Virus record (IMG/VR): IMGVR_UViG_3300036766_000889
DNA length: 64,000 nucleotides
Direction: 5' to 3' (one strand)
Origin: a virus
The translations under genes and the position numbers were made by a program. Below the pieces are notes generated by a model, which searched no databases, was not told the origin of the DNA, and was given only the letters and a program-made list of their open reading frames with translations. Of the stretch, positions 3,334 to 45,791 are shown piece after piece. Position 1 is the first letter of the stretch, and each line of letters opens with the position of its first letter.

Positions 3334-6138
3334 TTAGGGCTGGATCGGGTTTCCGAACAAATCCGACAAGCCCCCAATATCAAGACCATACGTAACAAAA
3401 TCTTTCATCCCGCGAACTTGTACACGCAAAACTCTTGGGTTACTCCAATATGATTCGCCAACCAGTAGTCCAGGCGGGCCAGTAAAACTGAGCTGAGCAA
3501 GCGTTACAGGTTCTTCGCGCATCGGCTTAGAAAAGAAGACATCGAGTTGGTCCTTTACCAATTTTTCTTTTGGCGACCCTCGTCCGGCTCCAGGTTCTGG
3601 TGAAGCAGATGCTATGAATGGTGGGTCAGATACGCCCAAAAATGACGCGCTTATTCTTCTTGTTGTTGGTGACGGGCGTGAGTATGGGTCATTCGAAAGA
3701 ACCTTCAGATCAGCTGTGATGGTATACTCAGACCCATCAGTGAGACCATCGTAATGAAACATAATAGTGTCAAAAAGCTTAGAAAACTGTAGTCTTGGTC
3801 CTTTGGCATAATGGGACGAAAGGTTATTTCTATGAGCAAAAAGTGCTCTGCTTAAAGCGATAGCGACGATAGAAGCTGATTTCAAATCAACCGCGTCTGG
3901 TTCGTAAACTGCGTCGGCCGAAGCCTGGAAAATATGATATATACCATCAACATTTGCGACATGACGGTTATATACGCTTTTCAAAAAATTAACAGCCGTG
4001 ACTATTGACTCTTCACTCATTGACGGAATGTTGGAATCGTTAAAGTCATCAAGTGTATCAGTTAGTATATGTACAGGAATTTGTCCTGATGGGGATACCC
4101 CAGATTCAGACAAATGAGTCCTGAAAACTTGCATCAGTTCTTCTATGAGAGCTTGTATCGAATAGACGGACGTCTCAAGGGATATGCTTGTAACGTTGAC
4201 AGGAAGACCATCCGTATTTGTTATCCGTACATCTTCCGTTCTAGGCATAACGAGATCAGCGGATGTTCTAATGCTTAAAGAACGTTTGCGAGGTAGGACT
4301 GACATTAAACTAACTTCACCAAATGGTGAAGTTGTGAAAACGAACGGCGTATCTTGAAAATCAGCACTATTGAGATTTACCGTTATGGTATACTTCGGAA
4401 TCGATGCTTCACTGACTAGTTTCAACCTGGCCGCATATGTAAACCCATCTCTAATGGGTGGTGCAGAATCGGGGTCAGCAAATGGAGTAGTAGAGTCAAC
4501 TTCAACAGGAAACTCATAAATTATATGATTGTTGAAAACATCCTTCATTGTTGAAGAAATTGACAGAGCAGAAACTGGGTCTATCACAGTTTGAGGCGTT
4601 AGAGTATTAACATCGTCAAAATATAGGTGTGGAGGTCTAGAAGCCAAGTGCGCAACGTATTTTATCTGTAACTCGTTCAATAACGAAATAGCTTCTGATG
4701 TGGTTGTTATAGATGGAGTGATGCATTCTGGATGCGAGTATGGAGCGTTCGGGGTGTTTACAGTATCCTCATATGAGTGCCATGGACCAAGTTCATGCAT
4801 AGACAAACGAGTTTTGAGTTCATCAGCAATGAGTGACGCGGAGTATAAATCAGATGAGTCATTCGGATCTGCAGATGTAATAATATTTTCGTTGTCCGTA
4901 GCTATGTGATAAGGAATGACTCCGAACAACGCACTTAGATGCGAGTTAAACCCGTATTTAAGAGCAGTGGCTAGTGATACAGCTTGTTGAATCGTAAATG
5001 CAGGTTCAAGGTCCACCACATCTGCCATGTCGGGGTTAGAATGTGATGGAACAGTAACGGAGTGTGAATTAAATTTTTCTAATAAATCATTCAGAAGTCC
5101 CGTTACTGACGCGACAGATGGCGGTGAATCGGCATCTGCAAAATGAACATTTTGAAATGACAAATGACTATTGAATTTAGACTTAAAATCTAAGCATATC
5201 GCAATAAGTGAAGGAGAATCAATAGGATCCGGAGCAGTGACTGGAAGAGAGTCACCAGAAAGGTGAACACCTTCTTTCGTAACATTCCATTTTGAAATGT
5301 CAGTTATATCAGTCGAAAGCATCGGGCAGCTAAAGAAAACGTCAACGTACGCGTTACGCTCTGCTGGAACTACCTTGCTAACATGTGCGGATGTGACTGT
5401 TGGAGTTGATATGTCAGCATAAGAAAAAGGAGGAGGAGAAGTAAGTCTCAAATCAAGAAAAACTTCACCGTCACCTGTATTAAAAGATGAGTCTGTGACT
5501 TTCTGATACTGAATTAGGAACTTATCTCCAGAAACGAGTCCGGGTTGAATTCTGAATCTTATGTTCGTTTCAGGAACGTCCGGAAAGCTTATAACCGGCA
5601 AAAGAACCGACATAGGTAAAACGGTGTCACCAACAATGGGAAAAATCTGAGCAGTGGCGTAAATCGTAGACGTATCTCGAACCGATTTATCGAACACTAT
5701 GTCGATACAAGACCTGTCAGAGAGGAAAGCTCCGACTGCTCGAGGTGGGGCTGGAACCGAAGCACTGAAGTTATAGGTAGAGGTTGAAGATATTCTGCCG
5801 TCCAGTGAATGAATGTCTTGAAGTAACAAAGAGTAAACAGCGGATAGTGTGAAGTCTCCAGAAAAAGTAACGGCGACAGATGTCATATCGCTATCAAAGA
5901 ATTCAACTGAAATAGCAGAAGGTATGAAAATCTCTGGAACACCAAAAACTGGTGATAAAAAATAGGCTCTTGGCCTTAAAGCACTTTCGTCTACAGGAAC
6001 CTCAAATACGACTCTTAGTGTAATAGAGTCAAGAACATGGACTCTAAAACCAAATGACGGTCCCTGATTGGGAAGAATGCCGAGAACAATCTTTCCTAGC
6101 AAACTTCCAGGCTGACCGAGGATAGACTGATTCGGCAC
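3334..6138 (-). CDS. Virion structural protein (934 aa) with Ig-like beta segments and ~9 His-x6-His helical repeats
   Basis: Long ORF in the tail cluster; repeats such as LNELQIKYVAHLASRPPH; C-terminal LDVFFSKPM...DLFGNPI resembles an Ig-like (SbsA-type) domain. Confidence 0.65.
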   Translation of the reverse strand: MPNQSILGQPGSLLGKIVLGILPNQGPSFGFRVHVLDSITLRVVFEVPVDESALRPRAYFLSPVFGVPEIFIPSAISVEFFDSDMTSVAVTFSGDFTLSAVYSLLLQDIHSLDGRISSTSTYNFSASVPAPPRAVGAFLSDRSCIDIVFDKSVRDTSTIYATAQIFPIVGDTVLPMSVLLPVISFPDVPETNIRFRIQPGLVSGDKFLIQYQKVTDSSFNTGDGEVFLDLRLTSPPPFSYADISTPTVTSAHVSKVVPAERNAYVDVFFSCPMLSTDITDISKWNVTKEGVHLSGDSLPVTAPDPIDSPSLIAICLDFKSKFNSHLSFQNVHFADADSPPSVASVTGLLNDLLEKFNSHSVTVPSHSNPDMADVVDLEPAFTIQQAVSLATALKYGFNSHLSALFGVIPYHIATDNENIITSADPNDSSDLYSASLIADELKTRLSMHELGPWHSYEDTVNTPNAPYSHPECITPSITTTSEAISLLNELQIKYVAHLASRPPHLYFDDVNTLTPQTVIDPVSALSISSTMKDVFNNHIIYEFPVEVDSTTPFADPDSAPPIRDGFTYAARLKLVSEASIPKYTITVNLNSADFQDTPFVFTTSPFGEVSLMSVLPRKRSLSIRTSADLVMPRTEDVRITNTDGLPVNVTSISLETSVYSIQALIEELMQVFRTHLSESGVSPSGQIPVHILTDTLDDFNDSNIPSMSEESIVTAVNFLKSVYNRHVANVDGIYHIFQASADAVYEPDAVDLKSASIVAIALSRALFAHRNNLSSHYAKGPRLQFSKLFDTIMFHYDGLTDGSEYTITADLKVLSNDPYSRPSPTTRRISASFLGVSDPPFIASASPEPGAGRGSPKEKLVKDQLDVFFSKPMREEPVTLAQLSFTGPPGLLVGESYWSNPRVLRVQVRGMKDFVTYGLDIGGLSDLFGNPIQP

Positions 6139-41388: not shown

Positions 41389-41547
41389 TTACACAGCTTC
41401 CGAACGTTGTTCAATTTCAGAAATTCGAGCTTTCTTCTCTTGGCGCGTCTGGTTGTTCAGCTTGCCTTTAGAACCATTGCCTTTATGTGGCTTACACATC
41501 AGGCAACCCGCCCGCCGCGATTTCTTTCTGCCTCGTTTGTGATGCAC
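41389..41547 (-). CDS. Small basic CxxCxxH protein (52 aa, GTG start)
   Basis: GGAGG RBS before GTG at 41547; HHKRGRKKSRRAGCLMCKPHKGNG. Confidence 0.6.
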   Translation of the reverse strand: MHHKRGRKKSRRAGCLMCKPHKGNGSKGKLNNQTRQEKKARISEIEQRSEAV

Positions 41548-41897
41548 TGAGTTATCCTCCCCCGTGCGACCGGCGCTACCGGCCTGACGGGGGTGGCACC
41601 CAAGCAACGTCGAGCGTAAAGCCGCCAACGTACTGCTTCAGGCACACGGGGCGCGCAAACTCGCGCTGGCTTTCGAAATTCCGGTCTTCGCCAACGAGCA
41701 GGCCGTGTCCCAGGTGGAGTTTTCGGCTCCAGGCTGTACGGATACTCGGGTTCTAAACTAGATTCATAACCAACGGGTATATTATAAATGACATTTGAAC
41801 CCGTGCTATTCGTGCTATTCGTAATGTGTATGACATATGGCGAATGACCATATGTCATAATCGTAGTCAAACCGGGATCATTAGGCCACACTGCCAT
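41499..41897 (-). CDS. Hypothetical protein with Arg-rich C-terminus (132 aa)
   Basis: ORF fills the gap after the Pth gene; no recognisable family. Confidence 0.4.
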   Translation of the reverse strand: MAVWPNDPGLTTIMTYGHSPYVIHITNSTNSTGSNVIYNIPVGYESSLEPEYPYSLEPKTPPGTRPARWRRPEFRKPARVCAPRVPEAVRWRLYARRCLGATPVRPVAPVARGRITQCITNEAERNRGGRVA

Positions 41898-41925
41898 GAT
41901 TTCACTTTACAACAAAAGTGAAATC
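41898..41925. other. 11-bp inverted repeat downstream of the Pth gene (possible terminator, processing hairpin or operator)
   Basis: GATTTCACTTT-acaaca-AAAGTGAAATC. Confidence 0.5.
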
Positions 41926-41932
41926 GAGTCAA

Positions 41933-42238
41933 TTAACCAACTAACTGAAGAGTCTTCACAAGCTTACGTGCAGAACAACCAGGTCCAAGCGCAACAGCTG
42001 TAAGGGCGTTCTGAAGGTCGGGTTCAAAATTTAACGCAATTGGTATGAGAGCATCATTGGCAGCCTTAGCTAGGCCCCAAATATCAGGAGATTTGAGCAA
42101 TACAAGTGTTTTGGAGTCAGCATACCAACTTCGTTCGAGCTCTGGATAACCCTCCTGGAATTCACGCATTGCGTGGCATGCTTGCGCAGCTTGTAAACCA
42201 ACAGGAAGGTCATCTCGAACTATTACATAAAGTTTCAT
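41933..42238 (-). CDS. pth2: Peptidyl-tRNA hydrolase, Pth2/PTRHD1-like
   Basis: KLYVIVRDDLPVGLQAAQACHA...W...KTLVLLK...EPDLQNALTAVALGP...LQL are PTH2-superfamily motifs. Confidence 0.85.
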   Translation of the reverse strand: MKLYVIVRDDLPVGLQAAQACHAMREFQEGYPELERSWYADSKTLVLLKSPDIWGLAKAANDALIPIALNFEPDLQNALTAVALGPGCSARKLVKTLQLVG

Positions 42239-42606
42239 GGTTTGGTCTCCTGTTGTAGATCACCCGATGAGTCAAATAGTGCTTCCGCAGGCGTGGCTCC
42301 ATAACTAGAGTGCAGAAATCGTCGTTCGGACTCATGTTGAATGAATCGACGACGATATCTCAAAGAATCGATGGCACCGGTATGTAACTCGATTAACCAG
42401 TTTAAATGCATATGGTCCAGTGTACGCAGCCAGACCTCATAATCCCCGGCACCACCAAAACTACGAGGTTTATCTTTAGACCAGAGTTTACGCAAGGAAT
42501 AACTTTTCATCGGCACAGCTTGAAAAATTAATTTATTGAGACGGATTATTTCTTCTTTGAGCTGTTGGATAACTTGAGTTTGAAGCTCATTTGATTCTTG
42601 AACCAT
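42235..42606 (-). CDS. Hypothetical protein (123 aa, MVQESNELQ...), coupled to pth2
   Basis: AGGAGAG RBS before ATG 42606; ATGA overlap with pth2; the upstream extension in the ORF track runs through the RNA array. Confidence 0.7.
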   Translation of the reverse strand: MVQESNELQTQVIQQLKEEIIRLNKLIFQAVPMKSYSLRKLWSKDKPRSFGGAGDYEVWLRTLDHMHLNWLIELHTGAIDSLRYRRRFIQHESERRFLHSSYGATPAEALFDSSGDLQQETKP

Positions 42607-42626
42607 GTTCTCTCCTATAATAGACA

Positions 42627-42709
42627 TGGTCCAGCGGGGACGAGTCGAACGTCCGTCTTGCCGTTGCCTTGCGGCACGGGCATGTCCTGCCTTTTTGGAC
42701 GACCGCCAG
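42627..42709 (-). ncRNA. tRNA-like RNA 4: extended anticodon arm capped by GCAA; G3.U70, A73, encoded CCA
   Basis: CTGGCGG TC GTCC AAAAAGGCA GGAC A TGCC CG TGCC GCAA GGCA AC GGCA AGAC GGACG TTCGACT CGTCC CCGCTGG A CCA. Confidence 0.8.
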
Positions 42710-42713
42710 ATGA

Positions 42714-42788
42714 TGGCGGGGCTGCTTGGAGTTAAACCAAGAGTCTTCGGGCTTTCGACCCGTCGCTCTATCGTTGAGCTACAACCCC
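42714..42788 (-). tRNA. tRNA-like RNA 3 (nominal GAA anticodon but C33, folds as C-GAAA-G tetraloop); encoded CCA
   Basis: GGGGTTG TA GCTC AACGATA GAGC G ACGGG TCGAAAG CCCGA AGACT CTTGG TTTAACT CCAAG CAGCCCC G CCA. Confidence 0.75.
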
Positions 42789-42789
42789 G

Positions 42790-42831
42790 TGGCGGGGCTC
42801 CGGAGACACCCGAAGGCGTCTCAAGAGCCCC
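42790..42831 (-). ncRNA. CCA-ended minihelix hairpin with cUUCGg loop
   Basis: GGGGCTCTTGAGACGCC TTCG GGTGTCTCCGGAGCCCC G CCA (17-bp stem, one mismatch). Confidence 0.7.
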
Positions 42832-42832
42832 A

Positions 42833-42917
42833 TAGCGCGCAGGGCTGGTACCGCCCCAACTACCTCCCTGGAAGCCCTTACGGACCCCAGGGCGCTCTAC
42901 TAGTGAGCTACCTGCGC
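42833..42917 (-). ncRNA. tRNA-like RNA 2: 11-bp anticodon arm capped by GUAA; non-canonical T-loop
   Basis: GCGCAGG TA GCTC ACTAGTA GAGC G CCCTGG GGTCC GTAA GGGCT T CCAGGG AGGTA GTTGG GGCGGTA CCAGC CCTGCGC G CTA. Confidence 0.75.
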
Positions 42918-42928
42918 AAAGTTGAAAG

Positions 42929-43002
42929 CGCGCTCGGAGGGAGTCGAACCCACAGCCGCCCCGATCATTAATCGGGTAGCTCAACCGTTGAGCTTCAAGC
43001 GC
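42929..43002 (-). tRNA. tRNA-like RNA 1 (atypical; nominal AAU anticodon, A8, no encoded CCA)
   Basis: GCGCTTG AA GCTC AACGGTT GAGC TA CCCGA TTAATGA TCGGG GCGGCT GTGGG TTCGACT CCCTC CGAGCGC G. Confidence 0.7.
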
Positions 43003-43012
43003 AATACTGAAA

Positions 43013-43116
43013 GTGGTCAGTGCCCTCGCTGGGCCTTTTGGCGCGAGGTATTGAACTAATCCCCTGAAAGGGAGCGCCTTCCCGGCGCAACGGTCAATGC
43101 GAGCTGATCACGGACC
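43013..43116 (-). ncRNA. Structured multi-hairpin leader RNA of the array
   Basis: Ends can pair (GTGATCAG/CTGACCAC); internal hairpins GCGCC-GGGAA-GGCGC, TCCCT-TTC-AGGGGA and CCTCGC...GCGAGG. Confidence 0.5.
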
Positions 43117-43117
43117 A

Positions 43118-43146
43118 AACATAACACTGAAATTTTCAAAGCGCAA
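43118..43146 (-). promoter_or_regulatory. Sigma70-like promoter for the tRNA-like array
   Basis: TTGCGC - 17 bp - TATGTT with an extended -10 TG. Confidence 0.55.
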
Positions 43147-43158
43147 GTATTTCAAATA

Positions 43159-43190
43159 CAAGTGAGGCCACGAAATCGTGGCCTCACTTG
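43159..43190 (-). terminator. Perfect 14-bp hairpin after the tail tube gene (probable intrinsic terminator)
   Basis: CAAGTGAGGCCACG-aaat-CGTGGCCTCACTTG followed by TATTT on the minus strand. Confidence 0.75.
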
Positions 43191-43209
43191 ATACTAAACG
43201 TTTGTTCAA

Positions 43210-44039: not shown

Positions 44040-45791
44040 ATGAGATCAGAAGTGCAAAAACAAACAAGACAAGAGCAAAATAAAGTTAATTCTATTCAGT
44101 ATACTGAATACTATGACAAAAATTTAGGTAAACTAACAACATGCGAAAAATGCAGTCAAGAATATGAGTTAAAATACTTTGTTAAAAACTACTCATTCAG
44201 AAATGTATGTAAAAATTGCCATGCTTTACAAATAAAAAAATGGAGACAGACGAAACCGGGATTAGCTCAAAAGGCTAGATTTCGTTCCTTTCGAACATCA
44301 GCAGACTTCATAAAATCGTTTAAATTGGGTAAAAGTTGCACAGTATGTAATAAAGAATATCCGCCATGTGCAATGGATTTTAACCATCAGGATAAATATA
44401 CCAAATTAGATTCAATCTCAGGTTTATACGGGAAATCAAAAAAGAGAATAAGAGATGAAATTGAAAAATGTGAATTAATTTGTGCAAATTGTCATAGGGA
44501 TATAACTCAGACTCAGTTAGAAACTGTTCCGACTAGTAAAAATAGAATATATAAACCAGAATTGGTAGATACCAACATATCAATTGGAAGTGAAACAAAA
44601 TTTTGCATTAAATGTGAACAAAAAAAACACGTTGAAGATTTCACTTTGTTGAAAATAGGAAAAAGACATTCATATTGCAAGAAGTGTTTGAGAGAATATA
44701 ACAAAAATTTGCAAAGACCTGATAAATTTTCAAAATCAGAGAGATTGATAATATTATTAAAGGACAATAAAACATGTGCCGACTGTGGTGTTCAGTATAG
44801 ATACTGGGTTATGGACTTTGATCATATTTCAGATGACAAATTTGATAGTATAAACAAATTACGAAATAAAAATACTGAAACCGTAGTACATGAAATAAAC
44901 AAATGTGAATTGGTTTGTGCAAACTGCCATAAAATAAGAACTCATAGAAAAAAACTTTCAAAAGATAACAATGGTATTTATTGTCCATGTATAGATCATG
45001 GTAATGACTCATATGATTTATTAAATTTTGTGAAGTCTCTAAGTACAGAAGCGAAATTAGAAACAATAAATGACATTCAATTTGTCACAACAGAACAGGC
45101 AAAGGTATCCATACTTAAATTTGAAACAAACAATAAAAATGTTTTGAAAAGTATAAATGATGATAAAGCGATATTAATTTTTGAAGACGAATGGCGAGAA
45201 AACCAGCACAAAGTTAAAAATCTGTTAATAAATCGATTCAAGTCATACCAACAACAGAAGAAACTTCGACCGTCTCAGTGCAAAATCAGAACGATAAATC
45301 ATCAAGATGCCGATAAATTTCTCAATATACATCACTATATAGGAGCGTGTAAACCACACGTAAGTTACGGCGTTTTTTATTCAGACCGATTGATTTGCGT
45401 AATGAGTTTCAAAACGCCAACCAGACAATCTAGTCATCCGTGGGAATTAGTCAGAATGGTATCAGATCCAGAGTTCCGTGTTCATGGAATTTGGTCAAAA
45501 CTTCTTCAACAATTTATTCAAGAAAAAAACCCAGATTCAATTGTTAGTTTTTCTGACAACAGACTTTTTCCGGGTGCGGTTTATCAAGCGATCGGGTTCT
45601 TATTCGATGGAACAATCGTACCTGATTACTACTGGGTAAAAAACAAGAAAAGATTCCATAAATCAGGACTTCGTAAATCAAAACAGGAGAAACTAAGTAA
45701 TTTAACTGAAACGGAACTTAGAGAAGCCCAAGGATATAGGAAAATTTGGGACCTCGGGAAAAAAAGATGGGTATATCGGACCACCAAATAG
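44040..45791 (+). CDS. Composite homing endonuclease: tandem HNH/Zn units plus Hef-like (FEDEW and GNAT/Mom-like) C-terminus
   Basis: MDFNH...KCELICANCH twice; IFEDEW; FLNIHHYIG...WELVRM...SFSDNR...YQAIGF...KIWDLGKKRW; strongly AT-rich. Confidence 0.75.
   Translation: MRSEVQKQTRQEQNKVNSIQYTEYYDKNLGKLTTCEKCSQEYELKYFVKNYSFRNVCKNCHALQIKKWRQTKPGLAQKARFRSFRTSADFIKSFKLGKSCTVCNKEYPPCAMDFNHQDKYTKLDSISGLYGKSKKRIRDEIEKCELICANCHRDITQTQLETVPTSKNRIYKPELVDTNISIGSETKFCIKCEQKKHVEDFTLLKIGKRHSYCKKCLREYNKNLQRPDKFSKSERLIILLKDNKTCADCGVQYRYWVMDFDHISDDKFDSINKLRNKNTETVVHEINKCELVCANCHKIRTHRKKLSKDNNGIYCPCIDHGNDSYDLLNFVKSLSTEAKLETINDIQFVTTEQAKVSILKFETNNKNVLKSINDDKAILIFEDEWRENQHKVKNLLINRFKSYQQQKKLRPSQCKIRTINHQDADKFLNIHHYIGACKPHVSYGVFYSDRLICVMSFKTPTRQSSHPWELVRMVSDPEFRVHGIWSKLLQQFIQEKNPDSIVSFSDNRLFPGAVYQAIGFLFDGTIVPDYYWVKNKKRFHKSGLRKSKQEKLSNLTETELREAQGYRKIWDLGKKRWVYRTTK

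Follow-up and report, generated by a model that had tools for sequence, protein, structure and literature searches.

Which role could a phage RNA have that keeps the body of a tRNA and has no anticodon, and could it carry an amino acid? The question is raised by the last unit of an RNA gene array of a large uncultured phage, in the 64,000-nt stretch of DNA analysed here (IMG/VR record IMGVR_UViG_3300036766_000889, hereafter the window), which tail fibre, baseplate and homing-endonuclease matches mark as phage DNA. The usual explanation for tRNA genes in phages is either codon supply or escape from anticodon nucleases. An earlier note, made from the letters of the window alone, had proposed that this unit, named mimic 4, carries alanine identity elements and could be alanylated. 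Its parts, in positions of the window, are as follows.

42627 to 42709, minus strand: mimic 4, an 83-nt anticodon-less tRNA-shaped RNA gene including an encoded ACCA tail; its minimum free energy (MFE) fold is a cloverleaf, it is the sole strict tRNA-body match in the window, and it is 94-100% identical in eight other loci.
42703 to 42709, minus strand: acceptor 5′ strand, C1 U2 G3 G4 C5 G6 G7, with G3 at 42707; it pairs with 42631-42637 in all five distinct sequences.
42684 to 42700, minus strand: D arm, a 4-bp stem and a 9-nt loop with A14, G18, G19 and A21, invariant across homologues.
42659 to 42682, minus strand: the helix in place of the anticodon arm, with 4 bp, a 2x2 internal loop, 4 bp and a GCAA tetraloop at 42669-42672 in the MFE fold.
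42638 to 42654, minus strand: T arm, a 5-bp stem with G53-C61 and the loop UUCGACU, invariant except for loop position 59 (C or A).
42627 to 42637, minus strand: acceptor 3′ strand with U70 at 42633, A73 at 42630 and CCA at 42627-42629; the strand is invariant and the tail variable.

MFE folding of an 86-nt stretch gave a full cloverleaf for mimic 4 (minus strand, 42709 to 42627). The 7-bp acceptor stem CUGGCGG/CCGCUGG consists of C1-G72, U2.G71, G3.U70 (42707/42633), G4-C69, C5-G68, G6-C67 and G7-C66, and the minus strand continues with the discriminator A and the encoded CCA, as the earlier note had read them. Its canonical T arm was likewise found, the loop UUCGACU closing a 5-bp stem. Two bases link the acceptor to the D stem, one base links the D stem to the arm helix, and the variable loop has 4 nt. 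The replaced anticodon arm takes up 24 nt, and the fold agrees with the double UGCC/GGCA stem, GCAA loop and missing anticodon described before, adding the internal loop between the two 4-bp helices, both of which are UGCC/GGCA. The universal tRNA core residues U8, A14, G18, G19, A21, G53-C61, U54, U55, C56 and A58 are all in register. Mimic 4 thus shows the body of a canonical tRNA (7-bp acceptor with discriminator, D arm, T-arm residues), and the 5-bp anticodon stem with its 7-nt loop (U33, anticodon 34-36) is absent. The folding energy by itself was not significant (z = −1.42).

The tRNA body was then looked for with search models. A strict pattern that demands 7/7 acceptor pairs, 5/5 T-stem pairs, a TTCRA loop and a D stem with GG, and that has no anticodon requirement, matched once in the 64-kb window, at mimic 4, versus a mean of 0.02 matches in 100 dinucleotide-preserving shuffles. 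ARAGORN and Rfam (RF00005) left mimic 4 uncalled, even at E ≤ 10 in a 3-kb search; within the array they called only tRNA-Phe(GAA) at 42714-42788 and tRNA-Ile(AAU) at 42928-43002. From mimic 4 we built a covariance model, R1, which matched genuine tRNAs of five other phage genomes at 25-37 bits. Because this reciprocal search recovers real tRNAs, the body of mimic 4 is tRNA-like. The best R1 matches in those genomes were tRNA-Pro, tRNA-Gln and tRNA-Thr, ahead of tRNA-Ala. A weak R1 match at L037:14-88 has no cloverleaf fold and was dismissed.

Copies of the element elsewhere were scarce. The array had no blastn match in the INPHARED phages, the body pattern had none in GTDB genomes, and DNA patterns of the element found only one chance 24-nt match in IMG/VR. 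As far as exact patterns can show, this absence from the three collections means that no host tRNA is being copied. A 24-nt GTDB match to the 3′ half of mimic 4 was rejected as chance, lying inside a coding region and without a cloverleaf.

Mimic 4 closes a series of small RNA genes, listed here from its upstream border.

43160 to 43189: terminator-like hairpin, after the upstream 231-aa gene and before the promoter-like motif.
43118 to 43146, minus strand: promoter-like TTGNNN-N17-TA(T/G)NNT upstream of the leader, read from the sequence.
43014 to 43117, minus strand: structured leader RNA at the array head, partly conserved in all homologous arrays (75% mean identity).
42928 to 43002, minus strand: tRNA-Ile (AAU), called by ARAGORN and Rfam; its stems covary among homologues.
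42836 to 42917, minus strand: mimic 2, also tRNA-shaped, its long arm GNRA-capped and its T loop non-canonical, as seen in the sequence; 89% mean pairwise identity among homologues.
42790 to 42831, minus strand: CCA-ended minihelix, only in window-type arrays.
42714 to 42788, minus strand: Phe-like RNA (GAA), 4 nt upstream of mimic 4, called a tRNA by ARAGORN and Rfam.

On the minus strand the order is leader, tRNA-Ile, mimic 2, minihelix, Phe-like RNA and mimic 4, with 1-11 nt between units. The promoter-like motif stayed below threshold in a consensus promoter scan; a promoter is proposed because the alignment places promoter-like hexamers at the same position in L034, L036, L040 and L042. 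The minihelix is present in the window, L032, L043 and L044 and absent from L033, L034, L036, L040 and L042. Many compensatory stem changes separate the tRNA-Ile homologues, and isoleucine decoding seems to be what this slot preserves; in L042 it has the anticodon GAU, AAU in all other arrays, and the L042 copy is not called by ARAGORN. The Phe-like RNA may also be non-decoding. It has C at position 33 and a discriminator that varies among G, A and U, and its apparent anticodon loop most likely closes to 5 nt with bases 32 and 38 paired, a pair proposed because U.G changes to C-G and G.U among homologues. In L036 (1857-1933) the Phe-like stem is GGGGCUG/CAGCUCC, with G1-C72, G2-C71, G3.U70 and G4-C69 and with U73; apart from that discriminator it is of fuller alanine type than mimic 4 and reads like the stem of a tRNA-Ala or a tmRNA.

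Two protein genes follow the array in the window.

42235 to 42606, minus strand: p123, a 123-aa, Arg-rich, all-helical protein with 13 homologue clusters.
41933 to 42238, minus strand: PTH2-like gene of 101 aa, phage subfamily phrog_1866 (Pfam PF01981, 27 bits).

The AUG of p123 lies 20 nt past the CCA of mimic 4, and p123 overlaps the PTH2-like gene. p123 matched neither a Pfam nor a PHROG family, and Foldseek against the PDB and tblastn against phages likewise found nothing; its AlphaFold model is all helical and weak (pLDDT 67). The PTH2-like protein shares 42% identity with genes annotated as peptidyl tRNA hydrolase inside the tRNA clusters of cultured mycobacteriophages, and its phage subfamily lacks the Lys of the GK motif. 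Jumbo phages are known to carry PTH2 genes (PMC7824862). A PTH2-like gene follows the array in seven of the nine loci, and the remaining two contigs end too early to show it. In L040 it stands directly after mimic 4 with no p123 between, and in L035, L037 and L038 p123 and PTH2 occur together without a visible array in the available DNA. The p123-like genes of these last three contigs have an invariant RYRRRF..ERR..LHSSYG core and adjoin a 375-388-aa protein as well as PTH2; a 2H-phosphoesterase/LigT-like gene is nearby in L035 and a CYTH gene in L038.

Related phages show what the segment interrupts. Fifteen IMG/VR contigs (23-436 kb; L003-L017) encode a homologue of the upstream 231-aa tube-like gene, 68-78% identical, and in these contigs no tRNAs, p123 or PTH2 follow it; the next gene is a homologue of a 316-aa gene or one of the HNH/Mom-like genes. 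Because these closest jumbo-phage relatives have nothing of the kind behind the tube gene, the segment of about 1.8 kb with array, p123 and PTH2, lying in the gap between the 231-aa and 316-aa genes (window 41390-43200), is, as judged from this gene order, an accessory cassette in an insertion hot-spot. Nearby, at 44040-45791 on the plus strand, the window encodes a 583-aa protein with HNH endonuclease modules and a C-terminal Mom-like domain; related phages have paralogues and homologues of it at scattered places close to the tube gene.

Homologous arrays were found through contigs encoding p123 homologues and through one metagenome pattern scan. The array occurs in eight further metagenome loci (L032, L043, L033, L034, L036, L040, L042 and L044), so that the mimic 4 family is known from only a handful of metagenome contigs, in nine loci with five distinct sequences. 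In a joint alignment, mean pairwise identity was 75% for the leader, 71% for tRNA-Ile, 89% for mimic 2, 91% for the Phe-like RNA and 97% for mimic 4, in which 74 of 80 columns are invariant and 6 variable. At third codon positions of p123 and PTH2, the window is 25-46% identical to L033, L036 or L040, which amounts to saturation. Because mimic 4 is that conserved beside neighbours so diverged, it is a selected RNA and not a decayed tRNA. Conservation starts at the first base of the cloverleaf and stops at the discriminator, and the flanks are unrelated.

Six sites of mimic 4 vary. At base 2 both U and C occur, so that pair 2:71 is U.G or C-G; the replaced arm has U-A as its outermost pair in the window and G.A in four of the five sequence types; the tetraloop is GCAA or GUAA, with GNRA kept; and the other variable sites are one variable-loop base, T-loop base 59 and the discriminator. 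Compensatory double substitutions were seen at no pair, the sequences being too alike, and because no pair has changed on both sides, covariation speaks neither for nor against the fold. Constraint on mimic 4 appears unusually strong on sequence as well as on shape. Since the arrays are mosaic, visibly so in L042 and L044, cassettes may recently have recombined in this segment, which could account for part of the extreme identity. Its tRNA body and sealed GNRA-capped arm are conserved among loci that also carry a nearby PTH2-like gene where the contig is long enough. Mimic 4 is a real, strongly selected, non-decoding tRNA mimic.

What would such an RNA do? We think it on balance probable that mimic 4 is a functional, non-decoding product of the array that works in trans, as a decoy or as a substrate of factors reading the acceptor end and the elbow of tRNA. 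Acceptor stem and CCA readers include synthetases, EF-Tu and Pth, and a decoy or substrate role towards such factors is plausible. The array would be transcribed as one precursor with mimic 4 as its final unit, from which RNase P would cut mimic 4 at its 5′ side, and 3′ trimming with CCA repair would complete its 3′ end. The folded RNA would be L-shaped, its acceptor arm and elbow normal and its GNRA-sealed arm about five pairs too long. Because this arm is over-long and sealed, mimic 4 should be unable to decode, and it may act through its perfectly kept acceptor arm and elbow. The PTH2-like enzyme, of a family that acts on acyl-tRNA ends, is the partner constantly encoded with it. The likeliest purpose would be to protect or manipulate tRNA and the translation apparatus during infection, for example against host toxins that target tRNA ends. 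Such defence toxins pyrophosphorylate, extend or acetylate tRNA ends (bioRxiv 10.1101/2024.07.05.602228).

The alanyl model of the earlier note is the strongest rival, and we judge it rather unlikely. It holds that AlaRS charges mimic 4 through G3.U70 (with A73), so that the RNA serves, independently of codons, to carry alanine or to bind EF-Tu, and that the PTH2-like enzyme possibly turns it over. For an RNA that lacks the anticodon, G-1 and a long variable arm, the known identity rules leave alanine as the only plausible amino acid, because among the synthetases that do not need the anticodon AlaRS alone fits, G-1 being missing for HisRS and the long variable arm for SerRS and LeuRS. The note had proposed to look at the conservation of G3.U70 and took its loss among homologues as a point of refutation; the pair was kept in all nine loci (five distinct sequences) while the adjacent 2:71 wobble changed to C-G. 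G4-C69 is present, and ACCA is encoded in three of the five types. Among the phage loci compared, G3.U70 occurs in 2/2 tRNA-Ala genes versus about 2/41 distinct non-Ala tRNAs, and G3.U70 moved into other tRNAs gives alanine acceptance (PMC9976931). A precedent is also known in irregular tRNAs that are charged yet unused in translation (PMC5389517).

The rest of the proposed alanine set fared differently: G3.U70 is invariant, whereas A73 and CCA vary among homologues. The discriminator is A in the window, L032, L043, L036, L040, L042 and L044 and G in L033 and L034 (2/5 types). L040 and L044 have the tail ACCG, L033 and L034 the tail GCUA, so that the CCG or CUA of two of the five types would need trimming and CCA addition. 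Position 20 of mimic 4 is C, and G20 is a minor alanine determinant in E. coli. The earlier note had cautioned that C1-G72 and U2.G71 are not optimal for AlaRS. Pair 1:72 of mimic 4 is C-G and pair 2:71 is U.G or C-G, while every known non-mitochondrial tRNA-Ala has G1-C72 and G2-C71, and E. coli AlaRS can be blocked by a deviation at 1:72 (PMC9976931).

Nor does the constancy of 3:70 say much in an RNA with 74 of 80 columns invariant. The sister Phe-like RNA has its G.U pairs at changing places, at 5:68 in the window, at 2:71 (as G2.U71) in L033 and L034 and at 3:70 in L036, which implies that G.U at 3:70 can arise in the array without obvious selection. The ranking by R1, with tRNA-Pro, Gln and Thr nearest and not tRNA-Ala, also runs against the model. 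Alanine identity of mimic 4 is possible, with the presence of G3.U70 as its one support, and what selection keeps need not be this pair. We also considered descent from tRNA-Ala(UGC), as the inner hairpin equals the anticodon arm of tRNA-Ala minus three loop bases and a look-alike exists in L002; the idea was dropped because R1 ranks other tRNAs higher and because GNRA caps are also found in mimic 2 and the Phe-like RNA. That mimic 4 is truly alanylated and forms, with the PTH2-like hydrolase, a phage codon-independent acceptor system, either a minimal device for ribosome rescue or alanine tailing, or a charged decoy taking up host toxins directed at aminoacyl-tRNA ends and recycled by the hydrolase, is in our estimate a long shot.

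It is quite improbable, if slightly less so than that full acceptor system, that mimic 4 works in cis. Here RNase P would cut at its 5′ side, parting the array from the p123/PTH2 mRNA, and the fold would be left as a protective 5′ structure. Mimic 4 indeed ends the array in every case, with the next start codon 10-35 nt downstream of it; its 3′ tail is variable, and the acceptor stem in L033 and L034 directly adjoins the ribosome-binding site. The tail ACCAUGU of the window can pair with ACAUGGU at the p123 start (42596-42637, minus strand), with the ribosome-binding site in the hairpin loop, but this hairpin is peculiar to the window and is not kept in L033, L036 or L040. An acceptor/T minihelix would suffice for such a role, yet the D arm, the tertiary core and the GNRA-capped arm are kept, and the downstream gene differs by locus (p123 or PTH2).

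Far less credit goes to a reading of mimic 4 as an analogue of the tRNA-like domain (TLD) of tmRNA, which would titrate SmpB or block trans-translation; we hold this very improbable. Both mimic 4 and the TLD, including the phage-encoded "TLD only" gene of mycobacteriophage DS6A (PMC4131195), have G3.U70, no anticodon and a helix at the place of the anticodon arm, and could be decoys; a TLD-like molecule inhibits tmRNA whether chargeable or not (PMC4131195), and the related PTH2-carrying phage contig L002 encodes a tmRNA. However, ARAGORN and the Rfam tmRNA families gave no match to mimic 4, and its C1-G72 and U2.G71 differ from the G1-C72 and G2-C71 of the TLD. A tmRNA has a GGGG-type acceptor with G3.U70, and its D loop, the site of SmpB, lacks a D stem. 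The acceptor of mimic 4 starts with CUGG or CCGG, its D stem is a regular one of 4 bp with a normal loop, and its helix fills the space that SmpB takes in tmRNA. No SmpB gene was present among the neighbours scanned.

That mimic 4 is a decaying tRNA pseudogene, or a recombination or homing site acting at the DNA level, without RNA function, is scarcely credible: tRNA finders do not call it and its cassette sits in an HNH-rich insertion hot-spot with mosaic arrays, but its identity far exceeds that of its neighbours' third codon positions, the few changes retain pairing or the GNRA cap, and it lies inside the cassette and not at its border.

Among known systems, the canonical tRNA (RF00005) shares with mimic 4 the acceptor with discriminator and CCA, the D and T arms with their tertiary residues, the 4-nt variable loop and the head-to-tail place in an array, and differs in that mimic 4 has a two-part GNRA helix and scores below the ARAGORN and RF00005 thresholds. 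The RNAC and RNAD of phage T4 (PMC3014915) are likewise unexplained small non-tRNA RNAs within a phage tRNA cluster. Odd tRNA-shaped arrays also occur in the irregular tRNA polycistrons that Mukai et al. described in soil metatranscriptomes (PMC5389517); some of their tRNAs are chargeable yet unused in translation, and a connection with conflict systems is suspected. Those RNAs keep anticodon loops and have 8/4 acceptor/T stems or extra loops, whereas mimic 4 is 7/5, sealed, phage-borne and PTH2-linked. YrlA, or Y RNA-like RNA (RF02553), has a comparable non-decoding tRNA-like module with an acceptor-like stem and D and T mimics. Unlike YrlA, mimic 4 has no match to RF02553 and no Ro-binding stem; a weak 23-bit RF02553 match sits elsewhere in the array, no Ro/Rsr gene was seen nearby, and no Ro/TROVE domain occurred among 10 neighbouring proteins scanned. 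Our literature search found no published description of PTH2-linked anticodon-less tRNA mimics.

Beyond codon supply and nuclease escape, a near-invariant tRNA body minus its anticodon suggests that infection puts the tRNA shape to a second use, namely mimicry of the acceptor end and elbow. The PTH2-like enzyme, its constant partner, is widespread in jumbo phages and mycobacteriophages. If mimic 4 is a decoy or substrate, mimic and PTH2 would together make a new counter-defence or translation-control module and give the PTH2-like family a function. Mimic 4 would also offer a natural experiment on whether G3.U70 is enough for AlaRS when the neighbouring pairs are C1-G72 and U2.G71.

Some further observations were made in the contigs compared. 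In L033, which is without mimic 2, about 360 nt (2390-2750) are inserted after the leader and before the tRNA-Ile(AAU), which is a different one here and of more canonical form. In the tRNA cluster of Mycobacterium phage Alice, a gap without annotation beside the PTH2-like gene gives a weak full-length YrlA match (L053:4398-4523), which at 24.6 bits is below threshold. The phage contig L002 has at 5446-5527 a tRNA with the opal-reading anticodon UCA, which ARAGORN does not call, together with a CUA suppressor tRNA, the tmRNA and a PTH2-like gene, and this combination suggests stop-codon recoding in that phage.
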